64,000 nt of DNA from Tubiluchus corallicola (lineage: Eukaryota > Animalia > Priapulida), in NCBI GenBank assembly GCA_030141605.1, contig JAQGDQ010000090.1:310001-374000 (forward strand). Direction: 5' to 3'. This document shows, piece after piece, positions 4,692 through 55,700 of this stretch. Both the position numbers and the translations under genes were made by a program. A model generated the notes under the pieces. That model was not told the origin of the DNA. It saw nothing but the letters and a program-made list of their open reading frames with translations, and searched no databases. The number at the start of each line of letters is the position of its first letter. Position 1 is the stretch's first letter.

Positions 4692-4743
4692 ATGTCTGGA
4701 ATATTCTTCATAACTGGAGTTATGATCCTCAGTAATTTTGCAG
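4692..4743 (+). CDS. Dscam: Putative first coding exon, signal peptide MSGIFFITGVMILSNFA
   Basis: ATG plus 17 mostly hydrophobic codons ending GCA G|gtgcgt (phase 1). Joins in frame to the acceptor at 19091 to give ...NFAEITVSSDASHMGPSF. Implies a 14.3-kb first intron. Confidence 0.7.
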
Positions 4744-31700: not shown

Positions 31701-34700
31701 TTAAGCAGAATCTCTGTTGTAATTTTTCAGTGGCACCAAATTTGGCACCATTTCAGTTTCTACGTGTGAAGGTTGGCAAAAGATCTTTTACCGTGTGTGG
31801 TGTGGACAGCGGTGATCCACCTATTCATTTTCGGTGAGGACAAAAAAGTTTAAAGAGCATATCTGCATTAATAACATTATTCTGTTTACAGCTCCTCCTT
31901 TGGTCGACCCATTTCAATTTCTTAGGCGTCGCATTGGAGAAAGAGCTGCTACGGTTTGCTTTGTCAGTAACGGAGACCCGCCAATTACATTTCGGTGAGA
32001 CTTACTGCTTGCTATAAGCAATATTTGGGTGAAAACTGGAACTATTTTCCTTTCAGAGCCTCCAAATCTAAACCCATTTGATTTTCCGAGACTCAAGATC
32101 GGGAAAAGGGCATTCGCTGTGTGCGGAGTTGACAGCGGTGATCCCCCGATAGCATTTCGGTGAGAGTTGATTTGATATTTGAACAGAATCTAAATTCAAA
32201 TAATTATTTCTTGTTTGTTTCAGTTGCAATATTGAATGCGTGTTCTCTTTTTTGGCTTGCAGTAGAAAGTGTCAAAACTGTTGACAGCTTTGGAGTGTTT
32301 TATGTGTGTACTACCTTTCCTGTTTTGTGAATGTCATTAAAATAATTATGGCTTGTGTTTTAGATGTGGTGTCGACAGAAGCTGTCTGGCTAAGTGAATA
32401 CCTTTACATTTTCTGTCCTCAAACACCCATGTCAGTATCAAGTACTGATTAATGGTAGTATTTGCACTTTGTTACAGTTGCTCCCGTGTTAGAACCATTT
32501 AGCTTTCCAAGATCTGATGTCGGGTCTAGAGCTTTTGCTGTCTGTGGAGTTGACAGAGGTGATCCGCCATTAGTGTTTAGGTAATTTTTTTGCTCTGAAA
32601 TCATGTTTTTTCACTCTGCATCATTTCAGTTCCTCCTGCTCTTGGATCATTTTCATTTCTAAAGTTGAAGATTGGAGAAAGGGCCTTCACCGTGTGTGGA
32701 GTTACCAAGGGGGACCCACCAATATCTTTTCGGTGAGATTAATTGATCTGTGTCATTAACTAATGTTTTCATTTCAGATCTGAGAACTCGAGTTTATTTT
32801 TTGCCGGTTGGTGGATTTTACATCATGTGGAGTGCTGAGCGTTTGCACCCCCCACTCCCCATTTCTGCTTATTATTTTGAATTAAGTGACGAATAAAATT
32901 ATTTCAGCTGCTCCATCCTTAAGCCCATTCGAATTTCCTAAGCTGAAGGTTCATCAGAGAGCATTTACTGTATGTGGAGTGCTGAGTGGTGATCCACCCA
33001 TTTCTTTTCGGTGAGCTTTTTTGCAAGAAATGCTAATAGGCTTTATAGCTTAGTCATGTCTCACGATGCGTTGTGCGTTTCAGAAACACCATTCATTCGC
33101 CCATTCGAATTTGGAAAGCTGAAAGTGCATCAGAGAGCATTTGCCACGTGTGGAGTAATAAGCGATGATCCTCCTGTTTCTTTTCGGTGAGCGGCTTTGC
33201 GAGCTGTATTTCAGTTAGCCATATTAACATTCTTCATTATTTCAGAATCACCCTCCCTTCGCCCCTTTGAGTTTGGAAAATTGAAAATTCACCAGAGGGC
33301 ATTTGCAGTATGTGGTGTGTTGAGTGGTGATCCGCCGATAATCTTTCGGTGAGCCTTTTAGTGCTTTCTTAGTCTTTTGTTATTGATTTAAATTTGTTTA
33401 TTTCAGAAACTCCTGTTCTTCGACCATTTGAATTCGGAAGTTTGACAGTTTATGAAAGAGCCTTTGCCGTCTGTGGAGTTTTACGTGGAGACCCACCGAT
33501 CACATTTCGGTGGGTGTCTTGTTCATTTGTCTAATTCGTTCTTTGCATTTCAGCACCACCTTCCTTGTTGCCCTTTGAACTGCCTAGAATTAGAGCTGGT
33601 CAGAGGACATTTGCTGTTTGTGGTGTCCATGATGGGGATCCACCAATAACTTTTCGGTGAGGTCCTTAATGTGACATAGCAAAATTAACAAAGGTGTTCA
33701 TTTCAGACTCTCCGTTGTTGGTGCCGTTTTCATTTCCAAAGGTGGAGAGCGGCCGGCGAGCTTTCGCTGTTTGCGGTGTTGAAAGAGGGGATCCACCGAT
33801 AAGCTTTCGGTGAGATCCGGCTTGATTTATCGATTTTTGTCTTCTTTCAGTGCCATCCGTCCTCTGCCCTTTTTTGTGTGCTAGTGTGTGTGTGTGTGTG
33901 CAGATTAGTGTGAATGAAGAGTTTGTTTAATTTGTTGTGCCTAATTTATCAAACTAGTTAAGTTTAGCAACAGTGAATTGACATTCTTATCTGAGCATGG
34001 ATATGTAGCTGCTAATGTCAATTTAATTTATTGTAAAAAATCTTTTCACTAAGACTAACAAACAATCATGCTATTGTCATTTCATGTTGTTAAACTTCAC
34101 TGCTTATTGATTTGTGGATTTTGCATTGATGAATTTGTGTAAATGTTTATTTTCTTGGCTATGTAACCCAGAAAACACTAATTTTTAGTAGCGATTTGTC
34201 TTATGAAACGGAAGAAACAATATTAATTTTGCTCCGTTTGTCATTAATGAATGTCAATTTGATTTCCAAGAGTGGAAGTCTATTTTAATTAGCCAGTATT
34301 GTAATTAATACCATAATAGTAAAACTGGATCCTTAGTATTTTCTGGGTACTATAAAATGTGCAAGCAGCTGTCATTATAAATTCATTATTTCCTTTATTA
34401 AATGTAAACATCTTTGTCGATACTTACACAGTTCTACGAAACTGTAACAAAAATATCAGTTTTTCTATATGCTCTCATTTGTGAACTTCCTTGCTGAAGT
34501 TGAGTTTATAATGAAATCTGTCTGTTTTTTAGAGTGTTTGTAAGCGTTATGCACATCTGAATTTTAACTATTGGTAAGCGTTATGCAACTGACTTTAAGC
34601 ACAAAACCAGATTTAATGCTAACATTCACAAATGAGGTGAACAGTTGGTTATTTAGGTGTGTTTCTGTGCTTGCTTTCATTTGTTGTTCGGGGATGCATG

Positions 34701-37700
34701 TGTAGTATGCCCAAAATTCGCTCCAGGTCAGTATTTTATTCCACCGAGTAGTGTACTGTGTACTTGTTTACCAGGCAAATTTCGTTTAGAATTTCTTATG
34801 ATGAAGCCACATTTTTCACCTCAGCCAACTACACCTGCATTGCCGAGAACCTTGCTGCCACTGCCAGTTGCACTTTGGTTGGGACTGGCTGATGTTGGCG
34901 GGGCTGTTGTGCATTTCTTCAGCTGGTTGAAAGACGGCCATCCTGTTTCGCCAAGTCTTGGTGTTTGAATTGTTGTCCCCGTAGAATTTGCCTCTGCACT
35001 TCAAGTGTGAGCTCACACCACAGTGGCATCTACATATGTACCGGCAAAATTTTTGTGATTTTGTGAAAGTTTTGACAAATTTGGCATGGCTCTCAAATTT
35101 CATATCATATTTTGTACCTCTTACCCTTTGTAGGTAGTTCTAATGACAGTAAGTTTAAAGCATTAAGAACGATAACTAATATGGCACATTATATTAAAAA
35201 GTATACTATGTAAAAGGTATGGAATTAAAAGACATTATCTAAAAGGTGTGGCTGTAAAAGTCATATTTGTTCTATCACAGGTAAGCTACGATACATTACT
35301 CCTGAATTAAAAAAGAAGAAATTGCATCCATCTGCACCTCTAGTTGATGCATTCATTGCATTGTGCAGATAAGAATAGTCCTTTTTTCCTAACTAATAAA
35401 AGTGTAACGATCCTATACAAGCCTTACTTATGCTGAAATCACTTTACATATAAATTATGTGGTTGCAGGCAGCAGCTATACATGCATTTCCTAAAAGAAC
35501 AAGAAACATTTGATCCCTTTCTGATTGGTGACAAACTGCTTCCTTTTTGGCAGATGGCTGAAAGATGATTTATCAATAATTGCTAACTTTGGCCCGTACA
35601 TTGTTCCCGACAAGTTCTCGTCAACGTTGGTGATTCCTGTTGTAGAATCACAGCATGCTGGAAACTACACTTGCATTGCTGAAAACCATGTGGGCACTGC
35701 TGCCTATGGAACTGTCCTCGAAGTTGATGGTAAGCAAACAGCAAAACCGTAATGTCACCACAGGATGGCTGTTTTCAAATGGCTTTCGCTTCGTTTATTT
35801 ATTGTAAACTTATTTCTTAAGCTGGTTCAAAGACCACCATGAGTTAAGTGTGACTGTGGGAAGGGAAATTATGGAGAATCGTGTTGCTTCAGCTTTAACC
35901 ATAATGTCAGTGAAATCCATGGACAGTGGAAACTACACCTGCGCAGCTAAAAATGAAGTTGGTCAAGCTTCGTATTCGGCTTCGTTAATTGTAGATGGTG
36001 AGAAACTTTTTGCTTTCATTATGTGGAGGTGGAAACTGTCATTAACTTGGCCTTCTTAGGTACAACAGGATGGCTGATTTCAATCAAATAGCTGGTTGCC
36101 TTTTGTAATTGCTTATTCGAACATTTTAAGCTGGCTTAAGAATGGTAGAGAACTAACCGTCACTCCTGGAAGGCAAATCATGGAAAATCTTGTTGCATCA
36201 ACTTTGACTATAATGTCTGTGAACTCGCTTGACACAGGCAATTACACTTGCCAAGCTGAAAATGAAGTTGGTCAGACATCTTACTCTGCAGCGCTGATTG
36301 TTAATGGTGAGGTTTACTAATTTTTTGCTGTTTTACAAATAGCTAAGGAATGTTTGTGAGTTTGTGGCCCTGATTGGGCATACCTTGGCAAAACAGGATG
36401 GACGTCAGGATCTGGTAAAAACTCAAGTTATTAAATAAACACAATTTCTTGTTTGTAAGATGGTTGAAAGATGGTAAGCCTCTTCCTAAACGTGTTGCTG
36501 GTGAAGTGATGGAAGGAAGGTTCGCTTCAACTCTAGTTATACCAAGAGTGAATGCTTCCCACAGTGGTAACTATGCTTCAGAATTTGGCAGGCTCTGCGA
36601 GCTATTCTGCAAAGCTTATTATCGACAGTAAGTAAAGCTGTATACTTGCGTTTGTTAGCACAGGTTCTAGGAGCAGAAATGTAAATTTTGGCAAAGAATT
36701 ACCATTCTTTGAACACCTGCCATTTTTAAGTCTTATAACAGAGGTAGTCACTGTTGTCATTTTGACCATATGCCAATCTAGCACCTGGAATATGTAATGC
36801 AGGAACCATGAGGCGATTTTTAGAAGTGCCAATAAATTATTAAGAATCTCAAAGTCAAGGTAAGTTTAATGGCATTTAGAATCCGTTCACGCAGAATAGA
36901 CTTGGTCACAGGATGGCATCTTATTTTGTAAAATCGTTAAGTCATAAATGCAAATTTCACGTAGTTGGCTCAAAGACGGAATGGCTATTCCCAAAAATCT
37001 GAAGGTGAAGGAATTTTTCGGAGATGGAGTGGCTTCGACGCTGGTCATTCAGAATGTCAATGCTAACCACGCTGGGCACTACATGTGCATTGCTGAGAAT
37101 AATGTAGCAGCTGCAATGTTCATGGCTGAACTGATAGTAGACGGTAAGCTTGCTTTTGTTAAAAAACTTCCTTACATGTTAATGAGTGAGAAAACACCAA
37201 GAGTGGCAACAGGAGGCCACTTTGGCATCTTCCTTGAAGAAATGTTTGGAGTTGTGCTAAGTATTTTTGTTATTATTATTATTATTTAGTTGGCTGAAGG
37301 ATGAAAAAGTCATTCCTACGAATTTACAAGTAGAACACTATATGAATGGCGGTGTCGCATCTGCACTTGTTGTACAGAGTGTGAAAGTTATCCACACTGG
37401 AAATTACACCTGTGTTGCCGAAAATGCAGTTGGAACCATGAAATATACTGCAAGCCTCGTAGTTGATGGTAAATATTTCAAAATGGAATGAAAATTTGGC
37501 AAATAGGATGGTCGCATTCGTATTCTAATACAAGCAGTAGGGTCTGTAAAGTCTTTTGTATCTGGTGTTTTAGTTGGTTAAAAGATGGTAGTACCATAAA
37601 TGACAGTCTGAAGGTGGAGCGTTACGTGGAGAGTGGAGTAGCGTCCACACTTGTAATACGGAGAGTAAAGGCCAGTCACTCCGGAAATTACACTTGCATT

Positions 37701-40700
37701 GCTAAGAATGCTGTTGCAATGGCCAGATTTGTAGCTGAACTTGTCGTTAATGGTGAGTTTAAATGCTTATCAGCAAACATCAAGATTTGGTGTGCAGAAT
37801 GCAAGTGTGGCACCAAACTCATTTAAACTGGCATAAAATGCTTATTCTTTGTTTGCGTAGCTGGTTTAAGGATGGCTTTCCAATTCCCGATAACTTGGAA
37901 GCTGGCCAGCATGGCGGGGATGGTGTCGCCTCTATGCTTGTGATTCAGAGTGTGACACGGGAACATTCTGGCAACTACACATGTTCTGCTAAAAATGTCG
38001 TGTCTGAGGCTAGTTACACTGCTGAATTAATTGTGAATGGTAAGGTTTTAATTATATTTGCAATCATTACCAAACCTTGGCGAATAGGATTACCTCTGGA
38101 AAAACTCCAGCAGTCATTCTGAGCAAGTCATAATCCAGCCACAATAATTTACTTGCTTAGATGGTTGAAAGATGGATTTGCAATGCCTGATGCATTAAAA
38201 GTGGTACACCATGTTGAACAAGGGGTAGCTTCAATGCTTGTCATTCAGAGCGTAACGCGGGAACATTCCGGAAACTATACATGCACTGCAAAAAATGCTG
38301 CTGCAACGAGTAGTTATACGGCGGAGTTAATAGTCAATGGTATGTTTTTTTAAGTTGTTCATTTTCCAAGCACCAGAACTTGGCAAACAGGGGTGTGCTA
38401 GTGGCGAGCTGTTGTAGTTAAAATATGTCATTTACTTAGATGGTACAAAGATGGCAGTGTAATACCTGCTCATTTAAAAGTGGGGCAGCATACTGTGGAA
38501 GGAGTAGCATCAAATCTTGTGATTCAAAGTGTGGTGGGTGAACACACTGGAAATTATACGTGCACTGCTGAGAATGATGTATCATTTGCTAGTTATACTG
38601 CAGAATTGATAGTAAACGGTGAGTTGGTTTTTATGTTTTATCGATACCAGTTCTTGGCAAACAGGATTATGCTGGCCGTTGAATAAACTTCTTGGACAAA
38701 TTGATTTATAAATTCTTGTTTGCTCATTAGATGGTTCAAAGATGGATCTGTAATACCAGATATGTTAAAGGTGGGACGACATACAGAAGAAGGGGTGGCC
38801 TCCACTCTTGTAATTCAAAGTGTAACACAGAAACACTCAGGAAATTATACGTGTTTTGCTAAAAATGCTGTGTCAGCGGTTAATTATACTGCTGAGTTAA
38901 TAGTGAATGGTAAGTCCTTTTCAGTGCCTCATCTACATCTTTTTATCAGTTCGAGTAACTTCTTTTCATTGAAGTTCTTGGAAAACAGGATGGAATGACT
39001 GTCTGCTGCTTGACCAGCTGAAAGTTGTTTATTTTTGAGCTTCGTTGACAGCCATCTTTTTATAGCTGGTTAAAAGATGGAGATGCTATTCGGTTTGATC
39101 CAGATCAGGATATAGAAGTAGTTCCTAGTCGTTATGCTTCAACACTTGTAGTGCCGGAAGTAGCTAGTCATCACACGGGAAATTATACATGCATTGCCCA
39201 AAACAAGGCTGGCATCGCTACATATACTGCAGAATTGATTGTCGATGGTATGTCATTTGGTGGTATGAGCTCATACAGCTGTGTAGGTCTTCTCTTTCAA
39301 CTTGTGCTGAATGTAGATTCAGTGAGGTGATTATTGCTGTGTTTAACAATTCTAGTTGGCAAAAGGATAGTGTGCCAATACCATTGAACTTTGGCATTGA
39401 ACATCAGGCATTTCCAAATGGGTTCGCTTCTACCTTAGTTATTCCTTTTGTCAAAGAACATCATGTTGGGAATTATACTTGTATTGCTGAAAACAGTGCG
39501 GGGAACACCCGATTTACAGCTCTTCTCAAGGTTGACGGTAAGCTTTTAAATAAGTGTTGAGGCAAAGTCTACGTAGACAACTTAAAAACTCTTAAACCGA
39601 TGACCTACTTGTGATTTTTATGAGTACTGTGGTGTTGTTAGCTGGCTGAAAGATGGTGCTACTGTTGAAAATGGCACGGGAATACATCACGAGGTTGTTT
39701 CCTATGGATTTGCCTCAACATTGGTTATTCCTCGAGTGCAGGCGCGTCACCGTGGTGACTACATGTGCATTGCAGAGAATGCTGCCGGAATTGCTTTGTT
39801 CCAAGCATCTTTAATTGTAAATGGTAGGAAAGTAAAGTACTGTTTTTAGCATAGAATCGCTTGTCACATTTTTTGATATAGATCTGTGTACCAGTGCATT
39901 TGATGCTTTTATTGCAGTGATTAGTTTCCATGAAATTATGATTTTGCTTCACCATTCCAAAAGCAGGTAGCTGTTATGTACAAATTATACTTTCATCTAA
40001 GAGCACTGCAGATTCATTTTAGTCCACCACTGGCTAGATTAGTGTTTAAAGGTCCGGTGTTTGAAGGTATGCCAAATGAGTTGCACTTACCTTTGGTGTG
40101 AGTTGATGCTTGGTCCTTAGTTCTTTAAAACACCTTATCGACACACAAACCTCAAAGCTTGGCGATATGACTATTTTTCAAACGATCATACAGTGAATTA
40201 TATGAAAACACTTTGGCAGATGGCTTAAAAATTCAAATGCGGTGCCATTAGAGAAAGGTATTGAGGTGTACACGGGTGGTGGCTTTGCTTCAACTTTAGT
40301 GATTCCTGTTGTTACGGCTGCTCACAGTGGAAACTACACTTGTATCGCAGAGAATGGTGCCTCCTACACCAATTATACGGCAACTCTCACTGTTGATGGT
40401 AAGCCATATGGAAGACTTGCTTGGCAATGGTTTTTGTGACATAGTGATCAGTTTCATTCCAATCTTTGACTTATTTCTGTACTTCTATACTATAATTCTT
40501 TGACTATATTAAGAGAAACATTGCTTAGACAAAAAATGCCATTTATAAGTGCAGAATTTGTCTTCTGGTTTTTAGGATTAGTTTAGGCCCACAGGCTTGC
40601 AGTTGTTAGTGCCAATGCTTCTTAGAACTCAGACCCAAATGCTTGTTGAAAGTCGACATGCTCCTTTTGTCACCAATTCATTTCTGCTAAGTATTTTTCT

Positions 40701-43700
40701 ATAATTGCTTGTGGCTTCTTGAAAGGGCGAGTATCGAAAAGGTAAGTGACATATGTTGAGATTAGTTACAATTGCAAATGTTAGTCAAGTACACCTCTGT
40801 CACAGTGGACATGGACTGTGTGTGAGCTGATATTTGGATCTTCTTTGCCTTTTGTATATGGCGTCTTGAAATCACTCGCTGACAAAGATTCATTCAGATA
40901 TGTGTGCATTTCTTAATATTCCTGAGAAAAATTTTCGGTAATTTTCGTAGTTGGTTTAAGAACTCAATCGAAGTACAGACAAGCAGAGATATTGAAGTCT
41001 ACAAGGACGGGGGATTTGCATCTACACTCGTGATACCTGTTGTTGCAGTACGACATACTGGCAATTATACTTGTGTAGCTGAGAATGATGTATCTCACAC
41101 CAATTACACTGCAACACTTACAGTTGATGGTAAGCTATGTAAAATTTACCATTTATCATGGCCTCCCTCTTCTGCCATGTAATGTTGAATAGTTTTGCAA
41201 AATATGAGAAACAAAACAAAATGCCAGTGGGTGTTAGTTTTTGCTACGTTGATTGTCGATTATTTATGATACAGTACTTCTAGCTTCCAATCATTGTTTA
41301 AGGTAAGCTGTGTGAGCACACACTCAGAAAGCTGCTTTAACTTTTATGGTCACATCATGTTTGCCTTCATTGGGCTCGCAGTCTTTCAGCCATCTTTCGA
41401 AGAACTTCAAAAGCCTTATTAAATGCATTCAGGTTTTAAAGTACGTTCTTGTAATAGTTGGAAAAAGGACGGTGCAACACTTCTGACCGAAAACATTGAT
41501 GGTGTTTACATTGATGACCTGCGGGAATTCGCTTCGACACTAGTAATACCCAAAGTTAAACGAGTGCATGCTGGAAATTACAGCTGCATTGCCAAGAATC
41601 CAGCTGGACATGCCTCTTTTGTTTCTCAGCTAGCAGTGGATGGTAAGAATCTTTAATTCAGCACCAGGACTTGCAGAATACAAAAGCAGGATGGCCCTTT
41701 GAAAAATTTCACATTTGACGACGTTGTATTTCGCCAATGTTGTATTGTAGATGGTTAAAGGATGGCATGGAGTTGAGACCAAATTCAGATCTGGAGATTT
41801 CTCCTACACGTTATGCATCCACGCTTATTATTGCTAGCGTTAGACCTCTTCATGCTGGCAATTACACTTGCATAGCTCGAAATTCTGCCTTTGCAACTAG
41901 TTTCACGTCCACACTAATCGTCGATGGTAAGTTGTTCTTAGGCTCATGTGTAGTTGCCACTGTGTGGTGGATGGTCGAAACTTTCCTTTCCAGCTTTAAC
42001 ATTTGCTTCCTACCATAACTCATGCTGTTGTTACTAGTTGGTTCAAAGATGAAATGCATTTGACAAATGTGCAGTCACACTAATCGTTGATGGTAAGTTG
42101 TTCTTAGGCTCATGTGTAGTTGCCACTGTGTGGTGGATGGTCGAAACTTTCCTTTCCAGCTTTAAGATTTGCTTCCTACCATAACTCATGCTGTTGTTAC
42201 TAGTTGGTTCAAAGATGAAATGCATTTGACAAAAGTGCAGTCACACGTTGAAATAACTTCAACAAGGTTTGCTTCGATGTTAGTCATTCCTCGAGTGACG
42301 GCCAACGACAGTGCAATCTATACGTGTGTAGCATCCAACTCTGCATCCAATGCTTCGTTTTCCAGTCACCTTGCTGTTGACGGTACGTGTTTGATGATTA
42401 TGTCGATCATGTCGATTATGTCGATCATGTTATCGCTCGATTAGAAAACCAGATGCAAATTTTCTTTGTTGTTTGGTTTGTTTCAATGCTTGCAAGCGGC
42501 CAGTGTGTCCGTGGTGTCCAGTGCTTATTTGCAAAGACTAATTTTGTTAGCACTTAATTAATTACTGAGTTCGAGCTGTCATAATATTTCTGGAGAGGTT
42601 ATTTACTTGGATATGGCGATGCTGGTTACTACACGGATTTCTATATTTTCCAGTTTGCTTTAAGATGTCCACTAGGGGTGAGCATTCTCTAACGGAAAGT
42701 GAATTCGAATCTAATCGAATTCGAATCGAGATAAAAAGATTTTCGAACAAGTTTTTGAACCACCTGTAAAAATTTGTCTTACAAAGATCATGCATATTAC
42801 TCGATTATGTTCTACAGTACAACCACCAATAACTTGTTTAAAAACTGTGCACAGAGATCACAGCTAAATAATGCTAACTCCATGATGTTGCTATCGTTTT
42901 AATGATAAAGAACGTATGTGATTGAAGTGCTGAATTATTCGAATCTGTAGTTTTAGGTTCAAACTAAAAAACTTTCAAATCGAATTCGTACGTTCAATGC
43001 TCACCCCTAACGTTCACGTAGTTATGTAATGAGTTTGTCACAGTAGTCTGTTGTCTGTCATGAACAGATAAACTAGATTCCTTGCACACGTCATAAAAAG
43101 AGCTTTTCCTTGGCTTAGACTTATCAACATCATTCTGTACTTTTTTGTAAACATTCTGTAAGCATTTTCCACTATATAAGCAAGCAGTAAAATTTTCAGA
43201 GCCTTGTGCTTAGTTGAAGTGACGTCTTTTGGTCTTTTAATATCATTTGATACCACTATGTGTGGTGTGAGCTCTGCACTTCGCACAGTCCTTCCACTCT
43301 GTCATCTTCTCATACTGAGAAACTTTCCAAATTTTCATTATTGTTACTAGTTGGTTAAAAGATGGATCTGAAATCAGTTCCGATTCAGGCGTGCTGCTGC
43401 TTGTTCCGAATAAAGCAGCTTCGATGATAGTCATTGAGACTGTAAAACCAGATCACCATGGCAACTACACATGCATTGCTGAAAATGATGTGGCAATGAC
43501 TAGTTATACTAGTCAGCTTTTTGTTAATGGTATGTATAAATGGCAGAAAATTCAGCTGCTCCAGTGGTATATTTCTTGCATTGTACTGAGAAAACATATT
43601 GAATTTCAGTTGGTTAAAAGAACGTAAATTCATTGCTCCTAACTTGCGTGTAGAAGTTGTAAAACATAAAGCCGCATCTATGCTTGTTATTGGTTCTGTT

Positions 43701-46700
43701 ACTTCAAGCCACAGTGGAACGTACACTTGCCTTGCCTCTAATGCAGCAGGTCATGCCAGTCTGTCTGCTGAGTTAGTGGTGGATGGTATGTATTCATCAT
43801 CAACCTGCACCACATGTTTTCTTTATCATGTTTCTGCCATATTTCACCCAGCTGAATCATATTTTTGTGATTTTTGGCAACTAGTCTCAATAGTTTGATT
43901 TTTACCATGCAGTTGGACTAAAGATGGCAGATCGGTACCATCTCACTTGGGTGTGGAAATGTTTACTCCAAGTGAAGTTGCGTCAATGATCGTCATCAAG
44001 TCGGTTAGCGCCAATCATTCCGGTTCTTACTCTTGCACGGCTGAAAATGCAGCTGGTAAAATAAGCTTTAGTGCTGCCCTTATTGTGAATGGTAAGTTAC
44101 ATTCTTTGTTAACATTCAAACTAAATCCCTCCAGCAAGGTTTTCGTCTTTCATGCAGGTATATCAAAACATGTAGGTCCATAATCAACCTTGCCGTTAAG
44201 ATGATTTAATTTGTAAGAGTAGTGCAACTCAAGAATCAGTTGTTAAGTAACAGCTCTAGCCCAAGACTTGGTGAAATAATTCGTGGCATCTAGCTGATTG
44301 GTGAAGTACCAGAAGTTGTTGTTTTACCATCGTTTTGCTGTAACAAGTCTATTACGTAGGTGGCTGAAAGATAGGCAACATATTCCACTTAACTTGAATG
44401 TAGAGATTCACAACTCCAGCGTTGTAGCTTCTATGATAGTTATACAAAGCGTTTCGTCTTTTCATGCTGGGAATTATACATGCATTGCAGAGAATTCTGC
44501 TTCTCATACAGAATATACATCACAACTTCTAGTTGATGGTAAGCAGCATTATGCTGTCATTTGCAAGACATTTGTTATTACCTTTTTATTGATATTTGAT
44601 TATCAAACACCTTTGCCCGATTGCTTTAAGTTTGACTGCAATAATGAGGATTCAGATAGCATGTGTATCATTTATTTTCATCAAAAATGGAAAAGGTGAG
44701 TCGTTTATTTTTTTCATTTTTGTTTGCAATAAAGAAACAGACATTTGTAAACCTAGTAAAACTAGAGGTAAAGCAAATTTTCTTTTATACCTTGCAAGTC
44801 TAATTTTCCAAGACTTGGCAGACGGATGGTCATTTTTCCTTGAATGCCTTATGGCTGTTATCTATGTGTGTTTGTCTCTTGATAGCTGGCTTAAAGATGG
44901 CAAACCCATCGTTGATGACAAGTCAATCGAAAGTGTAGAAACTGACGTTTCGTCGATGTTGCTAGTACGGCGAGTGCGTCCTTATCATAGCGGCATTTAT
45001 ACATGTGTGGCCAGCAATAATGCCGCAGATACCAACTTTTCTGCTGAACTTGAAGTTGATGGTAAATTGCCTTCAGAAATTAGTCTCGACACTCATTTCA
45101 GCACTTTCTATAATAATAAGTCACATGGTTAGTGAGGTGGGAATGTGCTTGGATGCTGATCTTTTTACTGTGAGCCTTAAGGGCGCTTAGAACTTGATAG
45201 CATTCAGTTTCCTGTGTTTCTTAATTGCTGGAGTTGCCTTGGTAGGTTGATCCGTTAGAGTTATGTTGGCTGTTTCATCAGTTAAGATTGAATTATGTGT
45301 TCACGTTTTTGATTTCATTTGGTGATACAGTAATTTCTTGACTCATTTAGAAATCTTAATTTTTTGACAGTTTAGTTGTCTTTGAGTGTTTTGCAAAGTA
45401 GACAAATTAGTGACATGTATGGATTTTAAAACAAGCTACAATACAGTTTTGAAAGCATCTCTGACTTGAAGATTTGTGCTCCAAGACTTTGCAGGCCATT
45501 GGTAATTCTTTCCATGAATCCGCTCATTCATTTAATTCTACTGAATTTATCTCTCAATACATGGCTGAAGGCTGGAAACCTTCTTACTTCTAACACCTCT
45601 CATCTGCGCATTTTAAATCGTGAAATAAAACACATTTGATTATCCTGAAAAAGGCTCATTCTCCAAGACTTGGCAGACCACTAGCCATCTATCCTAGAAA
45701 CTTTTCACTTCTGTAATTCTCCTGAATTTATCGCCTAATTGCTGGCTGATAAATGGCAAACTTCCCTTCACCAGCATGTCTGTTGAGCGCATGGAAAGTG
45801 ATGTTTCATCTATGCTGCTAGTACGACAAGTGCGTAATTACCATAGTGGAAATTATACGTGCGTAACAAGCAATGGTGCTGCAGACATTTCACTGCTGAA
45901 CTTATAGTTAATAGTAAGTCTAAATTATGGAATGCATTTGTCAGTTGTGAGGGGAGCTTGGTCGTTTTTCATAGTAATATGGTGAGTAGTATATTGTTAT
46001 TTACAAATTGAAAGACAGTCAGCTTTTCACAAGTAGAAGTCAAAAATTGTAAATCAGTTTACTTATAGCCATTTACCTACCTATTTTTTAAACTTGAAAC
46101 GGGCATGCAACCTTGCAAATTATCTGTCTTTCTTTCAACCAGCAAAGCTTGTTGGCTTTGTCTAGTGTCCCTTTAAAAGTTCTGAACTTTTGCAGCTGGT
46201 ACAAAGATAGTCAACATATAGAAGCTGGTGAAGGCATTAAAATGATTGACGATGAATTTTCTTCAACCCTCGTCATTCGTCATATAACTGCTAGTCATTC
46301 CGGCTTTTATACATGTTCTGCCAGTAATCCCGTGTCTGTGTCTACATTTTCTGCAAGACTAGTTGTCGACGGTATGTTTTCACAATGGAAGTTACATGTG
46401 GTTCACACAAACTTTTTTATGTTCATTGTTTCTACATTTCCTTCATGTATCAAATCATCTAAATACTTATTTTAGAGTTAACAAATCAAATATCTTCTGA
46501 ATCGTTACTAAGTGTTTAGCAGAGGTGTGTAACCGTTTTTTCATCAGCTTACCTTCCTGAACAAAAGTGCACTGCAAAGGCCGTCTTTTAACCAGCTGCT
46601 TTTTCTGCATCTAGAACTTTCCGAAAGGTCATTTACATGTAATTATAGTTGGACCAAAAATGGCAAAGGTTTGGATATGATAAATGTTAAGATAATGGAA

Positions 46701-49700
46701 GATGAATTTGCTTCAACGTTAATCATTCGTGTAGTCAATGCGCAACATGGCGGGAATTACACATGCACGGCTGCCAATGCCGTCGCAGCTGTAAACTACA
46801 CAGCACATCTGACTGTATATGGTAATTATATTTTTAATTTCATTCACAAGACTGTCTTTCAACCAGCGAGTTGTAATCATGACAATTTTTCCACGTATAA
46901 TTCATTATCAACCTTTATAACAGTTGGCTCAAGAATGGCAGTCCTATCTCTTTGGAGGCCGTTATTGAATCAGCAACTGGTTTTGCCTCAACTCTTGTCA
47001 TCGCTTCTGTTAGTTCTCAACATAGTGGCAACTACACTTGCATTGCCGAAAATGCCGGTGGTAGTACAAACTACACTGCAAAATTGAAAGTAGATAGTAA
47101 GATTTTCCAAATTTGTATTTTGGAAGTTAGTGCAATGTATTGTGACATGACATTGCTATGAAAAGTGCTCGTCAGTCAGCTGAAGCTTTGCTTTGTTAGT
47201 TATAAACACTAGCAACAACTGCTGCTCCCAGTTTACCACTTGTGATGCAATCTTTCAACCAGTAAGTCAGCTTACCAATTGTGTTAGCAAAATAATTACC
47301 AAATTATTGACCAAACAAATTTAGCTTTTTACTTAAGTGAATACATAACAAAATTTATTAACAGTTGGTTAAAGGATCATACCACTGTTCCCTTGGATGT
47401 CATTGTTGCATCTGCTACACCATTCACTTCTACTCTTGCCATCAGTGCCGTGAGTCTTAAACACAGTGGCAATTACACCTGTTTTGCTGAAAATGCTGGC
47501 GGTAGCACAAACCACACCGCTGAGTTAAAAGTAGACGGTAAGGAATTTTTGTAAATAACTTAACTTGTTTGTTTTTCCTTACTTTTTGAGCTACATTGGA
47601 TTAGTAATGAGAGTGGATGGCTTAGAGGATTAATATCTTTAATAACGAGGTAGGTTCTGGTCCACTTCATCTTTTAAAGGACTGCTGACAGTCCTTGTCC
47701 TTCAATGTCTTTAGTGGGCAATGCCACTGATGCTAGATTATGCTTTGTAGTGTGTGCTGAACTGTATAAAAAATCATCATGGTACAACAACCATCAAAAC
47801 ATCAAGCACTGGGTGATTGCTTCTTTCAGCCAGCAATTTAACTATTTGTTTGTGCGAAAGTTTTTAGTTAGAATTCACCCAAAACACATTTATTAATAGT
47901 TGGTTGAAGGATAGTGCTTCAGTCGCTGCTGATGTGTTTGTCGTTTCGGCTACACCATTTGCTTCAACTCTAGTCATTCCTGCTGTTAGATTTGAACATA
48001 GTGGAAACTATACCTGCACTGCTGAAAATGCTGGTGGGAGTGCAAGTTACACTGCTAAATTGAAAGTAGATGGTAAGACTTTGCTGTTAGAATTGTAAAC
48101 CGACTTTTTATCATCTAGTACTGATTTGTACAGCCAGGTGCTTGTAATTCCCATGCAGCATCCACTGGAAATATTTATAAATGGCCAGAAGAACAGCCAT
48201 TACTAGAATTCAAATGTAAGGGCAAAGAAACAGCATTTTAGTAGTAAAATGATCAGACCTTGTTGCTAAGCCAGGTATGACAGAATTTCTTACAGTAGTG
48301 GTCCCTTCTCCAAATGCCTTTCAACCACTGAAGAAAAATTTGAAAAGTAACCATGTTAATCATAAATGCCACAGCCAAATTTTAATGTCATAGCTGGCTA
48401 AAGAATAATGGTGCCATTGATGCAGATGCCGTCATTGATCAATTGTCCTCAGGCTTTGCTTCAACACTTGTCATCAAAAGTGTTAGTTCTCTTCATGGTG
48501 GCACTTACAGTTGTATTGCAGAAAATTCTGCCGGTAGTGCGACTTATGGCACTGAGCTGAAAGTTGATGGTAAGTTGCTACACAGGTAACTTCAAGTGGG
48601 GTGGAAAACAGTTTGGTGCCGTCAACTGAGTCATTATCTCACGTAGAAAGTCTTTCAACCAGCACTGTAATTTACTAGCTAGAAAAGAAAGTATAAATTT
48701 AAAATGTTACGTAGTTGGTGGAGAAATAAAGGCGGCATTCCTGCAGATGCTGTTGTTGATACGTCAGCTACGGGTTTTGCATCAATGCTTGTCATCAAGA
48801 TTGCTAGCTTTCATCATAGTGGCAGTTATACTTGTATTGCTGAAAATTCTGCTGGTAGTGCGAGCTATACAGCTGAGCTGCAAGTTGATGGTAAGTTGGA
48901 GTTGCTCCTGTACTCATGAGTAGTAGGGTATTCAAGGAAAGGTGATTTATGTTGGCTCTCGTCTCCTTAACTCAGAAAGTCTTTCAACCAGCACCGTGTA
49001 ACTTAGGTTATCTAAAATACTACTAGAGAACACAAAGCATCAACATTTTTCATAGTTGGCTGAGGAACAATAATACAATTCCTGTGGATGCTGTCGTGGA
49101 AACTTCTGGCACAGGATTTGCATCAACCCTTGTTATCACAACTGTCGATTTTCGACATAGTGGCAATTATACCTGTATTGCTGAGAATGCTGGTGGTAGC
49201 ACATACTACATTGCTGAGCTCTTAGTAGATGGTAAGATATCTTTGCAATTTGAAGGGGCAGTTGAATTAAGGCAGTGGTTTGTCTATGTAGACCTCTCTC
49301 TTCTGTTGTACTTTCAGCTGGATTTTTGTTGGATTTACAGTCAGTGTTGTTAGTATTCAGCAATTTAGTTAGTATCTGAAATATCTTTTCCCAGAAGAAA
49401 ATTGGTTTGCTTTTCTAGGTTATTAAGGCTACCATCTTACCTTTTTTTGCTGCTTTGTTTTGTGTTTCTGGCAGTGGCAGATAGACCCAAAATGCCTTTT
49501 TCCTTGTCTTTTGCAACTGTTCTGTGGAATACTTAACTTTTAGGTGGTTAAAAAATGGCATTCGCGTTGTCTCAAATTCCAATATTAGAGTGTATCTGCA
49601 AGATGATTTTGCATCGACATTTGTCATAAGAGAAGTTCAGCAAAACAACAGTGGCAATTACACATGTATTGCGCAGAACTTAGCTGGAGCTACAGATTAC

Positions 49701-52700
49701 AGTGCATCTTTAATTGTGGATGGTAATTATACACTAACTATTACCATAGTCATACTGTTTATGTAGGTATGTCGTATTAGTTCTCTGCCGTCTTTTCCAG
49801 CTGAAAAAATGACCAGCTTGTACATGTAGTAGTTTAGCCTCACTGTTTAGTTGATAGATATTGTTCTCACTCGCTTAGCTGGCTAAAAGATGAAAATATT
49901 GTTCCATCCAACTTGGAGATTAGAATCTACAGTGAGGATGAGTTTGCTTCTATGTTGGTTATAAGGAAAGTTGGTGCTCAGCACTCGGGCAACTATTCTT
50001 GCATCGCAGAGAATGCAGTTGGAGAAGCAAACTATGTTGCACATCTAATTGTAGATGGTATGTTTGGTTATCTCAGTTTTGCAGTTTTTGTTTATTGCCG
50101 AGATGATCGCATGGGTAAACACATTTCTATTAGCTTGCATTCAATGTTATGTAAGTATGTATCTTTTTACTGGGCATTCTTTTTCCCAGCTGAAGAAATG
50201 GTTGTTTAGTAACTCGCACTCCTGTATTGATGAACGTTCTTGTTCATAGTTGGCTCAAGGGCTACCATAACATCCCCGCAAACCTGGATATTAGAATCAA
50301 CAACGATGAAGGGGTGGCCTCTATGTTGGTTATAAGGAAGGTTAGTGAACAGCACTCGGGCAACTATACATGTATTGCAGAGAATGCAGTTGGAGATGCC
50401 AGCTATGTTGCACAGTTAGTTGTAGATGGTACGTTTGACAACTTGTAAATATTCCGTTTGCCATTTAGGATGGTCACCTTTCTGTCAGCTGAATGTGACA
50501 AATTGTTGCCACGGTGACAGTGATTTATTGTTACATACCGAATGTTCTAACAGTATTCTCAGACACTTTGTTTATAACAAATTAGTTGGACATGGGACGG
50601 CAAATCTCTCGCCAAGGATGTTCATGTTGATGTATCTCCCATAGGGCTTGCATCCACTATCATCATTCCCTATGTAACTTCGCATCATTCTGGGCACTAC
50701 ACATGTATTGCTGAAAATGCAGTGGCAACTGCCACATATACTGCTGTCCTAAAAATTGACGGTAAGACTTTCTATCCCATACAGCTGGATAAAAGATGGC
50801 TTACTGGTTTTCCCCAGCAATTTGATTGAAGTTTCTCCCACCGAATTTGCCTCAACATTGATTATAAAGAGGGTGAATTCTGGCCACAGTGGAAATTATA
50901 CCTGCGAAGCTATTAATGCAGTAGCAGTGGCAAGATTTACAGCAGAACTCATTGTGGATGGTAAGCCTGGTGGTTTAACAACACTGCCATATTGTCGGGA
51001 CACATTTGAACACCAAGACTTCAAAATAAAAATTGCCTGTAAAAGCTAAAAGATGGATAACATTAAAAAACATATTATAGTTGGTTAAAAGATGGAACTG
51101 AGGTTCCTCATGGAGTTGAGCCAGAAATGTCACCCAGTGGCTTTGCGTCGATGCTTATTATACGCACAGTGTCTTCATATCATACTGGCATCTACACGTG
51201 CATAGCCCAGAATCAAGCTGGTAGTGCCAGCTATTCAGCTAGTCTCATTGTTGATGGTACGAGTTACATTTTGTCATTTTTTTGTCTGAATTAGTTGGCT
51301 TGCTAATAACGTGCGAGTAGTGCCGAGTGTTGTTGTTCAAATTGTACCGAGCGAATTCGCATCAACGCTTGTTATACGAAGTGTTGAATCTCATCACAGT
51401 GGTAATTACACTTGCGTTGCTGGTAACTCTGCGGGCTTTGCTATGTTTACTGCAGATTTAATGGTTGATGGTAAGACAGGTTCAAATACGCATGTTGGTT
51501 TTCTAGGCTGTTTTCTACTACGTTAGTTAGGTAATGAAAGTGGTTAATTAACGTAAACTATTGTGTCATTTAAATGCTTTTCTCATTGAAATTTATCTGA
51601 TTTGTTTTTCTTGATGAATTTAAAGGTAGTAACTTAAATGGCAAAGTGAAATTTTCGCATTCTTATTTTCGTGATATCCGTACACTTGTTTATGACATAT
51701 TTTTGAGAGATTATTTAATTCTTTCAGTTCCTCCATCTTGGATTACTGAACCAGAAAATACGTCGGTTGTTCTCGGGTCGGCAACGTACATTGATTGTGA
51801 AGCTGATGGCATGCCCAAACCAACCATCATCTGGCAAAAAGAATCGAGCGAATGTAATTAAAATGAAATTTTTATACTGTGAGAACTAAAGTTGTCATAC
51901 TAATAGTGGCTATTCTGTTTTAATACCAAAAATACTTGATATTTTGTTTGTTGTATGTTGAGATACTTTAAAAGTAAATTTGTAATACACTTTCAGTTAA
52001 AATTTCGTTAAAACTACCTTTCTGCATATGGATTTGATAAGTGGTTCAATAAATACTAATGTTATAGCAAGCATTAATTGGCTGCATGGCTTTACTGCTT
52101 ATTATTAAACGATTTTGCCAGTTTTGATGTTGTAAAATTTATAGAAAGTAGTTGTAATACCAAGTATTTTGAAACCAAAGTTGAGTCAAAATTTTAAAAA
52201 TAGCAAAAAAATAATTGCTAATTTTCAACAGAATAATTGGTGATTGTTTTAAAGTTCACTTTTTGATTTTACAATTAGTATCTTATAGCATCGGCATCAG
52301 ATTTACCTTTTTTTAGATGAGGATTACTTTGTTGACCTGGACCCAGATCACACGCATGTGTTTGAAAATGGAACACTTTTTATCGGCCAAATATCTGAAG
52401 AAGATGTTGGAAAATACATGTGCGAAGTATCGAATGGCGTTTCACCAGACATAAGCAAGCTTATTGGCATAACTGTGCATGGTACGATTCTTTTATAATG
52501 TATAATATATTATATATATATATATATTTATATATATAAAAACAGTGGTTGTGATGAAAAAAGTAACGCCTCTGTTCATGTGACTGATAAATTCATGCTT
52601 TCTGCAGTTCCGGCAAAGCTAGAAGATGGCGAGACAGAAGTTACAGTTGGAGTGGGGGAGAGCGCGACGTTAGAATGCTCCGCAAAAGGCGATGCACCTC

Positions 52701-55700
52701 TCAAAGTGACATGGACAGCTCTAGGGAGAGCAGTGGAAAATGTAAATGATGACAGGTATGTGAATGTGTTATGTAGAAGAAGCAGATCGGTATGTTGCAC
52801 ACAAGATGCTTTACATGGTTGCATTTCTCATGTTAAAACTTTACACGTATGTGCCAGAAATCTTAGTTCACATTTATTTATAATTTTTGTTGCCTTTATT
52901 TTCGTTTATTTTAAACAATACAATATCTACTGTGATTGATACAAACTGTCCTCAAAGTCCACACTTGTTAGAAAGTGACACCAGTAATAGAAAAGGCGAA
53001 ATCAGAACAAAAATTGCGCGGCATGTTGAATTGTCGAGTTTTAACTTTTCAGGAGAACTAATTGTGCTTGACTGCTTTTTCTAAAGTAGTTCATAAAGTA
53101 TCTGTTTCATAAACACACCATTTGTTTTAAAGTATCGTGTTTACAGTGCACACATTGCCATTGCTGTTGTCACTTGTAACTAAAACAATTTAATTTACTT
53201 TTTTAGGATAACAAAGGCCGAGCAAAAGTCTGAAGATGGCATAATCTCTCAACTTACTGTTACCTCAGCTCAACGGTCTGATACTGGAAATTATAGCTGC
53301 ACTGCCTTAAATGAATATGGGCAAGTGACACGGGTGATCTATTTAAAAATTATAGGTACATGTTATTTATCAATCATACTTATAAGTAAATTCCACGTTG
53401 GTGGTTAAACAGTGAGGGATAGCTCAGAGGGTGATGGTATGTGCTCAGCATCTGAAGTTAAGTAGCAGTGCAGCAAATGGATGGAAACTGCCAAGGAAAA
53501 CTGCTTCTGGATGTTTTTGTCTGCCATCTGCACCCTGACATTTACCTCATTGAGGGAGGGTGTATAGTATTGCATATGTCGAACGTGAACGAGATGCCAG
53601 TATCATTTCATTGTCTCTGTTCTTGTCCCTCTTTTTTGTCATTGTGTCCTGATTTGAATGAAGAAGCCTGAATGTAGAGTGCTGAGCACAGAGTGCTAAA
53701 AAATTGCCTTTTGCATGCAATCAAAAATAACCCGATCTTTCAATATTATAATATCTTCCAACATTCCGATCTCCCAATAACCTGAGTTTTATTATAAGAC
53801 TGAAATTTTAGAAATTTTCAACTTTTTTTCCAAAATACATTATGTAGTGTACTTAGCAGCAGTTTAACATACTTCACTGACATGGCTAAGTTGATGCATG
53901 TATATTTTCGAGAAAGAGAATCTTTCATTGAGATTTGGTTTTTAGGTAAACCTGAAGCTCCGGGATCGGCGTCAGTGTCTAGTCATAGTAGTCGATCAGT
54001 TACTCTTTCCTGGACAAAACCAGATGACGGAAACAGTCCAATAACGAAGTACATGGTAGAGTTTAAAAAGGGCAATTTGGGTAAGTATTTTTATGTTTTT
54101 ATTGGGTAGCTGTAACTTGTTCTTTGGCTCTAAAGCAGTGATTATAATTGTAACTAATTTTTCTAATTTTCTAAAAATCTCTGTCAAAGATCTATGAAGT
54201 AAATGTACAGTGCCTCATAATATATATATATATATTATTCTTGGTGTTATGAACCATATTTATTTGTTAATAGAAGTACTTATCCAAATTCAGCAAGCTG
54301 TCTTTGGAAAAATGGTCGTTTGTGGACCTAGGCTACGACCAGCATCAGACATGTGATGATAGCAGTGATGAATGCTGACTGGTAACAGTGCAAAGAAATG
54401 TAGTTCGGAGTTAATACACTTACATCTTTTTTTCTTAGACACCTGGAAAAATGCCGAAAGTGTTGAGTCACCTGCAATCTCTACAGAGATGACCATTCTT
54501 GAATTGAGGCCAGCTCACACGTATCAGCTTCGAGTGCTGGCCGTAAACGTTGTTGGTCAGAGTCCACCCAGTGATGTTCTGACTGTTACCACTGATGAAG
54601 AAGGTATGTTTCGACTTCCAAGGAGGGACAGCATTCCTTTCAGGAATGGATTTGACAGATGCAATGCAAATTATTCGTCTTCAAGTCTAGGGGAGGGGGA
54701 GTGAAGTCTCTAAACATGGAATTTTCAATTTTAAAACATTTGCATTAAAATGTGTAATTATAATAAACTAACTTAGAACAGATGCATTACAAACAAGGAG
54801 GCGAGGTGACAGATATAAAACATCTGGTAGAATGTTCAGAGATACTCTGGAATCTTTATGGGTTATAGCTTCCTGTCCTGGCTAGGCATTTGTCATTATA
54901 ATTTTTGACACTGGAAAACTTTCTGAGTCATGCTTGCTAATTTGAGTTGCTACTTCTTTTTGCAGTACCCGAAGGCCCTCCTTTGGAAATTGAAGTCGAA
55001 CCGACCAGTTCTCAGTCACTTAGAATTAGCTGGCAGGTAAGTGACATTTATTTGTTATGCAATGTGGCACAGTGGATACCGAAATTCAGCATTAAACGAC
55101 AGGGCCTATTACTAGATGTGGATGTTTGCAGTGAGTCACACGGCACGTGGAACATAGCTCAGTATTTTCTCAAAAGCTATTTTCTCTATGATAAGGCACT
55201 GAACCGACAGAGAAATCTTAGATACTGTTGGATATAAATACATCTTCCATCGCCGATGTGAACAATGAGCACGCCTGCAACAGCAATGTTGAAGCTAGTG
55301 ATTACCTGTTCACTGACTGCCAAGACTTTCCAAATTCCAAATTTTGGTCACCAAAGCACACACCAAGACCACCTTGAACTGCATGAGATATTGCTCTTAA
55401 AAGCATGTCTGGTGTTTTAGTTTAATGGGATTTGTGATTATTAAAACTGATTCCGGCTATCAACACTTGCTACATGCATTTGATGCGAGGCCCTGAACAC
55501 GTAGTTACTATGGTTTTCTTCTCACTTGCAGCCGGCATTGCAAGAGCTAAGGAACGGCAAGCTGAAAGGCTACTACGTAGGCTATAGACAGTGCAGCACA
55601 GACGAGTCCTATCTGTATAACAGGGTGTCCTATTCTGGGGAGGACGGGGATGAAATTGAGCTGGATGACCTGAAGAAGTACACTCGCTATTGTATAATAG

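Follow-up and report, generated by a model that had tools for sequence, protein, structure and literature searches.

Pairing between a docking site and selector sequences is the basis of the Graveley model for the exon 6 cluster of Dscam1 in pancrustaceans (PMC8042237, PMC8791459, PMC12962786). Clade-specific docking sites have already been reported for the clusters of exons 4 and 9, and exon 9 docks of this kind have been predicted in beetles (PMC8042237). The exon 9 exons of Dscam1 each encode the whole of immunoglobulin domain 7 (Ig7) in 243-312 bp (PMC3364881), and in Strigamia there are two to five copies of Ig7 per gene, each again a whole Ig7 (PMC4244043). In chelicerate sDscam, competing dock/selector pairing at the 5′ cassettes has been tested experimentally (PMC4835542, PMC9258826). 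Hypervariable Dscam itself has been described in pancrustaceans only, chelicerates and centipedes having taken other routes (PMC10084454, PMC5775551, PMC4244043). Here we analyze a stretch of 64,000 nucleotides (the window; contig JAQGDQ010000090.1, positions 310,001 to 374,000 of the forward strand) that holds a single, full-length Dscam gene on its + strand. Ig7 of this gene is encoded by two exon arrays, A for the N-terminal half and B for the C-terminal half, and most introns of array B carry sequence complementary to a decayed exon, B0, that we propose to act as their docking site.

The mechanism predicted from the sequence is that of Dscam1 exon 6, set in a layout that is neither that of Dscam1 nor that of sDscam. 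As in exon 6, there is one upstream dock, the selectors lie in the introns before the variable exons, and about 40 exons each encode half an Ig domain. The first of these, B1, lacks a B0 selector, just as fly exon 6.1 is independent of the dock (PMC8791459). Unlike exon 6, the variable exons encode the C-terminal half of Ig7 rather than the N-terminal half of Ig3, the upstream array is followed by the dock without an intervening constitutive exon, and the dock is a decayed exon of ~130 nt with an intact acceptor and three segments, with no significant LCR-like fold adjoining it. With Dscam1 exon 9 and the Strigamia duplications the gene shares variation centered on Ig7 of a full-length Dscam, but here a phase 2 intron splits Ig7, each half is arrayed, and Ig2 and Ig3 are invariant. 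With chelicerate sDscam it shares an independent diversification of Ig7 type with dock and selectors; sDscam, however, is shortened and has alternative promoters and a downstream dock, whereas here the protein is full-length, the arrays are internal and the dock is upstream. The portions of the literature covered (including PMC9013439, PMC10154414, PMC6191721, PMC11802352 and PMC4691838) record hypervariable Dscam in arthropods alone and contain no Dscam whose Ig7 halves are arrayed, although the supplements to PMC4835542 and PMC5775551, which lie outside that scope, could show a split Ig7 in some gene of a chelicerate.

Array B and its putative docking site

The features on which the argument rests are the following.

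35554..51470, + strand: array B, C-terminal half of Ig7, 42 units
34912..35043, + strand: B0, putative docking site, a decayed B exon (nhmmer profile of the 38 intact B exons, match 34913-35043, E 5.4e-15)
34912..34939, + strand: dock segment I, comprising the acceptor and the start of the exon, facing mainly the selectors of distal B28-B35 and B37-B39, and also those of B12, B13, B17 and B23
34931..34970, + strand: dock segment II, facing mainly the selectors of proximal B2-B12, and also those of B15, B18, B24-B27 and B41
34972..35040, + strand: dock segment III, facing the selectors of mid-array B13-B17 and B19-B21
34825..34870, + strand: second decayed B exon fragment (3′ half), nhmmer E 1.2e-6

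The B units encode strands C-G of Ig7 in 173-185 nt, running from phase 2 to phase 1. An AG, a GT, an open frame and matching phases are found in 38 of the 42, the broken units being B4, B19, B26 and B27, and every intact B exon has a length of 2 mod 3. The 38 intact exons have a median protein identity of 44%, and their four-fold sites are saturated (0.31 identical, pooled over all pairs, compared with 0.29 for random sequence).

B0 is what remains of a dead B exon, the first of the array, and comprises its polypyrimidine tract, its AG and its initial ~120 nt. Its acceptor AG is intact at 34921-34922 and is followed by a reading frame, WLKDGHPVSPSLGV, that meets a stop after 14 codons; the match has a 7-nt gap relative to the profile and includes neither a 3′ end nor a donor. 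A first-pass annotation of this DNA had placed the dock at 34912-34965. That interval stands, but the true extent reaches ~35040, and the origin of the dock from an exon, together with segment III, had been overlooked.

Examples of the partners of segment I are 46131-46143, 46579-46598, 46852-46867, 48650-48663, 48979-48992 and 50178-50200, and examples for segment II are 35760-35775, 36384-36406, 37774-37792, 44261-44278, 44808-44819 and 51004-51021. Segment III is matched by 39260-39276, 39552-39581, 40094-40113, 40820-40838, 41310-41324, 41945-41964, 42111-42130 and 43261-43274, the last being a perfect match of 14 bp. Segments I and II overlap, and the selectors of B13, B15 and B17 use two segments.

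Complementarity between B0 and the introns of array B

The first-pass annotation had reported that the reverse complement of 34912-34965 recurs before most B exons. The sequence it quoted is exact and all 25 matches it cited are present, each 62-114 nt before the B exon that follows, with longest perfect runs of 6-15 nt. Also correct are its individual runs of 12, 13, 13 and 15 bp, its match of 21/23 positions at 36384-36406 and, at 46579-46598, its 20 bp including one G-U.

When every 54-nt window of the 64 kb was scanned, the dock was the top window, sharing a perfect antisense 9-mer with 25 of the 42 B introns. The runner-up, the acceptor of B4, reaches 12 B introns and is homologous to the dock; a control on the same strand reaches at most 10. 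A perfect dock 9-mer occurs within 100 nt upstream of 25/42 B exons, 0/30 non-array exons and 0/33 A exons. Compared with control introns, a comparison that the annotation had proposed, the B introns are predicted to bind the dock better. Duplex energies of 41 B segments (that of B40 being too short) and 30 non-array segments differ with a Mann-Whitney P of 2.9e-9, and 21 of the B segments give stronger predicted duplexes than the strongest non-array control. All 30 dinucleotide-shuffled docks are beaten in 30/41 B segments, a figure with a slight bias toward the real dock, which was moved along at smaller increments than the shuffled ones. Predicted helices with B0 cover 19/40 B introns, the highest value in the window. 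When 40 introns were paired with each of 43 homologous stretches (B0 and the 42 B units), 27 had B0 as their best partner and 36 had it among their three best, the introns of B40 and B42 being too short for this ranking. The 25 selectors whose seed is 9 or longer all lie 48-103 nt from their exon. Finally, all nine of the 9-mers common to at least four B introns are dock complements, as are 14 of the 26 common to at least three (introns of B1 and B20 omitted).

It could be argued that an exon was duplicated in inverted orientation, that the inverted copy multiplied together with the tandem units, and that the complementarity left behind is neutral. The dock is indeed an exon homologue, selectors made up of two parts run antisense to B0 and collinear with it, and the selector of B15 lies on nearly one diagonal over 72 nt (40094-40165 against 34948-35020). 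Yet synonymous sites are saturated and the words shared between introns are almost only dock complements; since four-fold sites have reached saturation among the paralogues, neutral inheritance would have erased the selectors. Moreover, B0-specific sequence beats any live exon in 27/40 introns, and the spacing is fixed. We therefore find a neutral relic very hard to credit. An inversion may have been the origin of the complementarity, but it does not explain its persistence.

Competing pairing and its alternatives

These observations are best explained by competing pairing as in Dscam1 exon 6, to which we give a probability of roughly 0.8 from the sequence. The mechanism that the first-pass annotation had suggested gains support from the single upstream dock, from partners that overlap on it in part and would compete for it, and from the near-fixed distance of the selectors before the acceptors. 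In the pre-mRNA, B0 would act as a docking site by pairing with one selector at a time, and the pairing would loop out the intervening exons and bring the chosen B acceptor near the donor of the upstream A exon. A repressor or nonsense-mediated decay would remove double inclusions. Products with two B exons would be exposed to decay because every added B exon shifts the frame. The analogy is with the fly system, where downstream exons are excluded by a repressor or by decay of the frame-shifted products. Pairing to segment I would additionally cover the AG of B0 itself, and this leftover acceptor could possibly be a decoy that is hidden, or handed over, by the chosen selector.

The covering of that AG is also what would be expected if the helices form but serve as balancers or masks, hiding the B0 acceptor and tuning frequencies, with exclusivity coming from repressors and nonsense-mediated decay. 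B0 has an intact AG and then an early stop, and it is the selectors of segment I that cover the AG. Fly Ubs6.1 masks the acceptor of exon 6.1 via elements upstream of distal exons (PMC8791459), and the element at the first exon's acceptor pairs there, as is predicted here, with introns before later exons. No dock was found for array A, whose exons must nevertheless be included one at a time, and the intact B exons all share a length of 2 mod 3. However, the selectors of segments II and III leave the acceptor uncovered. Furthermore, the fly balancers precede only a subset of exons, whereas B0 is among the three best partners of 36/40 introns at a fixed acceptor distance. A role confined to balancing or masking is consequently unlikely in our view.

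A third possibility is that diversity is made elsewhere, by DNA deletion or conversion between units or by trans-splicing between transcripts, and that the pairing assists in this. In mite sDscam, trans-splicing is helped by pairing between RNAs (PMC9258826), and there is a recent local duplication with deletion at B19/B20. Against this, all 38 of the intact units have AG/GT and matching phases, as cis alternative splicing predicts, and no flanks resembling recombination signals were seen around them. We attach very little weight to this explanation.

Several observations weigh against competing pairing at B0. Segments I and III have no positions in common, so that two selectors could occupy B0 together unless the geometry of the loops prevents this, and segment III was recognized post hoc, via weak minus-strand matches of the B profile. 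B1, B22, B36, B40 and B42 are without a B0 selector, and for B17 B0 ranks only sixth. The broken units B4, B19, B26 and B27 retain selectors, and those of B12, B19, B20, B32 and B35 pair equally well with live exons. The selectors are paralogous, and the counts given above are not independent. Lastly, the bias toward G-U is not significant, with 9 wobble and 3 anti-wobble internal mismatches (P 0.07) and P 0.79 in a flank test.

Other searches around the dock were negative. A gradient of dock register along segments I-II is not significant (rho -0.39, P 0.052). Folding beside the dock, where an LCR-like structure was looked for, is no better than in shuffles (z 0.15, 0.29 and -1.09; -0.25 in another run). 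No second, downstream dock for array B was detected, there being no peak except B0 and the B exon starts, and Rfam gives no match in 25000-52000. We rejected a hairpin between each selector and the start of its own exon, because for 25 selectors the energies are -13.8 kcal/mol with the own exon, -14.4 with other exons and -28.3 with the dock (Wilcoxon P 0.44).

The mechanism proposed for B0 has relatives in two described schemes. Besides the fly Ubs6.1-Dbs balancer discussed above, the stem-loop duplication model of Ivanov and Pervouchine (PMC6071210) derives competing selectors from one duplicated stem arm. It concerns intronic stem-loops, whereas in the present gene the arm that overlaps an exon is the main dock and, unlike in either scheme, that exon is dead. 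The system could have begun as an intron element that paired with, or masked, the first exon and was duplicated together with the second exon; the first exon would afterwards have lost its coding role and been retained as the dock. The portions of the literature covered describe no docking site that originated from a dead exon. That the mechanism is a convergence on a non-homologous cluster, as had been suggested, is reasonable because the cluster encodes the C-terminal half of Ig7, not the N-terminal half of Ig3, and the dock stems from an exon of its own array; the gene that holds the cluster is, all the same, a Dscam too. A fly-like mechanism probably arose here independently.

Some further details of the array were noted. 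The introns before the intact B40 and B42 are only 23 nt (50762-50784) and 38 nt (51257-51294), and these two exons may share a neighbor's selector. In a DNA alignment B36, B40 and B42, which lack a B0 selector, are nearest to B0, with weak margins. B19 is a 56-nt fusion of the exon start with the end of B18 (region 41927-42203), with near-identical introns preceding B19 and B20; this could be a recent local duplication with deletion or, alternatively, an artefact of assembly. Within the second decayed fragment, 34855-34867 is a perfect 13-bp complement of 49468-49480, 63 nt before B36, a single match that may be due to chance. A 17-bp complement including G-U pairs links 34690-34706 to 35475-35491, 62 nt before B1; it would loop in the dock and may also be due to chance.

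Array A

27049..33809, + strand: array A, N-terminal half of Ig7, 33 exons

The A exons encode strands A-B of Ig7 in 103 nt (106 nt in one case) and run from phase 1 to phase 2. A11 is without an in-frame GT, giving 32 usable A exons. Short introns are characteristic of this array, 21 of 32 being 65 nt or less, compared with at least 99 nt for 27 of the 28 introns outside the arrays; the exception lies between two exons for the transmembrane (TM) segment.

No dock for array A was found, as k-mer scans that covered its introns, donors, acceptors and exons revealed no outlier, and helix coverage peaks at 6/33 compared with the 19/40 of array B. A purine-rich stretch at ~26700 that is complementary to A acceptors was dropped when it tied with unrelated windows. 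Because no dock was found and the introns are short, the exclusivity of array A likely results from steric exclusion of neighbors together with decay.

The donors of array A (27049-33809) are unusually uniform, most reading TTTCG|GTGAG. In several A exons Pro-Pro codons just 5′ of the donor could pair with it, for example CACCGA with TCGGTG at 33790-33815. After A33, 33850-33875 may be what remains of the start of a 34th A exon; it was not recovered by the A profile.

The Dscam protein and its lineage

A spliced model, with exons placed by splice sites and phase, gives a protein of 1826 aa running from Ig1 to the tail without an internal stop. Its domain order is Ig1-9, FN1-4, Ig10, FN5-6, TM, with the 10 Ig and six FN3 domains of the Dscam family. 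The best PDB match to Ig1 is Drosophila Dscam (3dmk, E 1.7e-34), and FN6 matches PF25059 (FN3_DSCAM-DSCAML_C) with E 3.1e-26. A phase 2 intron cuts Ig7 before the core tryptophan, the two halves being arrayed separately. An A exon aligns to 6zr7 at 4-35 and to 7y6o at 3-36, and a B exon aligns to 3dmk at 654-709 and, on the same Dscam chain 7y6o, at 38-95. A repeat search of the window confines exon arrays to 27-34 kb and 35-51 kb, and the two adjoin without a constitutive exon between them. Ig2 and Ig3 are encoded by single-copy exons (20674-20820 and 22581-22871), not by arrays of their N-terminal halves as in Dscam1, and Ig7 is built from a 103-nt and a 173-185-nt array, not from one variable exon. 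Ig1-Ig6 lie upstream of the arrays; in sDscam, Ig1-6 are lost and the 5′ cassettes have their own promoters.

The model is 34-39% identical to all 31 of the Dscams compared, across 1,200-1,900 aa and alike for all groups. We calculated a tree with IQ-TREE (LG+C20) from 22 rows, 10 of 32 having been dropped as redundant, that included 12 arthropod Dscams, eight spiralians and Saccoglossus. The 12 arthropod proteins group together without the window protein (support 99/98), which is placed as the sister of arthropods with respect to spiralians and Saccoglossus (100/99) on the longest branch (1.3). A spiralian origin is not favored; a first tree placed the protein with Solemya and Saccoglossus, but it became the sister of arthropods when eight spiralians were added. 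A tree that forces it together with two Dscam1-type proteins is 26 log units worse and is not rejected (p-AU 0.076); here we read the Bombus row as Dscam1-type from its position in the tree and the presence of PF12355. PF12355 has no match in the three tail exons of the window gene. A tail motif is common to spiralians, Saccoglossus and spiders and absent from the insect and centipede rows.

Judged by the protein, a non-arthropod ecdysozoan source fits best. A divergent arthropod is possible because the tree sample contains no non-arthropod ecdysozoan, crustacean, sea spider, millipede, chordate or cnidarian. No close relative of the protein was found, the best matches to Ig1 being fragments of 50-54% identity, and the tail exon had no match in sequence searches for relatives. 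The A-exon donor motif had four matches in metagenomes; these were rejected as chance, falling in GC-rich contigs without B exons.

Potential diversity and its meaning

By arithmetic, rather than by observation, 32 A and 38 B exons could be combined into up to 1,216 forms of Ig7, and the alternative FN2 and TM exon pairs listed below would raise this to 4,864 isoforms. In the Ig7 dimers of sDscam and Dscam1 strands B and E form the core of the ABED interface. From the I-set fold we take the cysteine encoded in array A to be that of strand B, and the STLVI strand of array B is presumably strand E. Because array A would then supply strand B and array B strand E, we infer that the homophilic ABED face has combinatorial specificity.

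Taken as a whole, the proposal would be that a non-arthropod ecdysozoan independently evolved a hypervariable Dscam by splitting Ig7 and arraying its halves (one interface, ~1,200 forms, ~4,900 isoforms), with a fossil-exon dock recording the birth of competing pairing; we hold this at even odds. If it is true, this would be a further origin of hypervariable Dscam, probably non-arthropod, with a different layout and again centered on Ig7, and both the diversification and dock/selector splicing would appear repeatable. A dock recognizable as a dead exon would provide a testable account of how docking sites originate. Adjoining arrays, one docked and one dockless, would allow mechanisms of exclusivity to be compared within one transcript, and the split interface would raise the question of whether Ig7 specificity is modular by strand.

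Other exons and repeats in the window

4692..4743, + strand: candidate signal-peptide exon, whose phase 1 donor would fit the Ig1 exon
19092..26215, + strand: single-copy exons for Ig1-Ig6 (Ig2 two exons, Ig3 one, Ig6 two), from the gene model
51728..63421, + strand: exons for Ig8, Ig9, FN1-4, Ig10, FN5-6, TM and cytoplasmic tail; the gene possibly extends beyond the window
55532..56040, + strand: alternative pair of exons for the C-terminal half of FN2 (55532-55769 and 55803-56040), both open and separated by a 33-nt intron
61828..62207, + strand: alternative pair of TM exons (61828-61986 and 62043-62207), separated by a 56-nt intron

The two FN2 exons are likely to be mutually exclusive. FN2 is a domain for which no variability is reported in the portions of the Dscam literature surveyed. 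The two TM exons, 56 nt apart, resemble fly exon 17. The long intron before Ig1 contains a tandem repeat of 31-nt units (12985-13732), and CAC and CAT microsatellites lie side by side upstream of the gene at 2546-2760.

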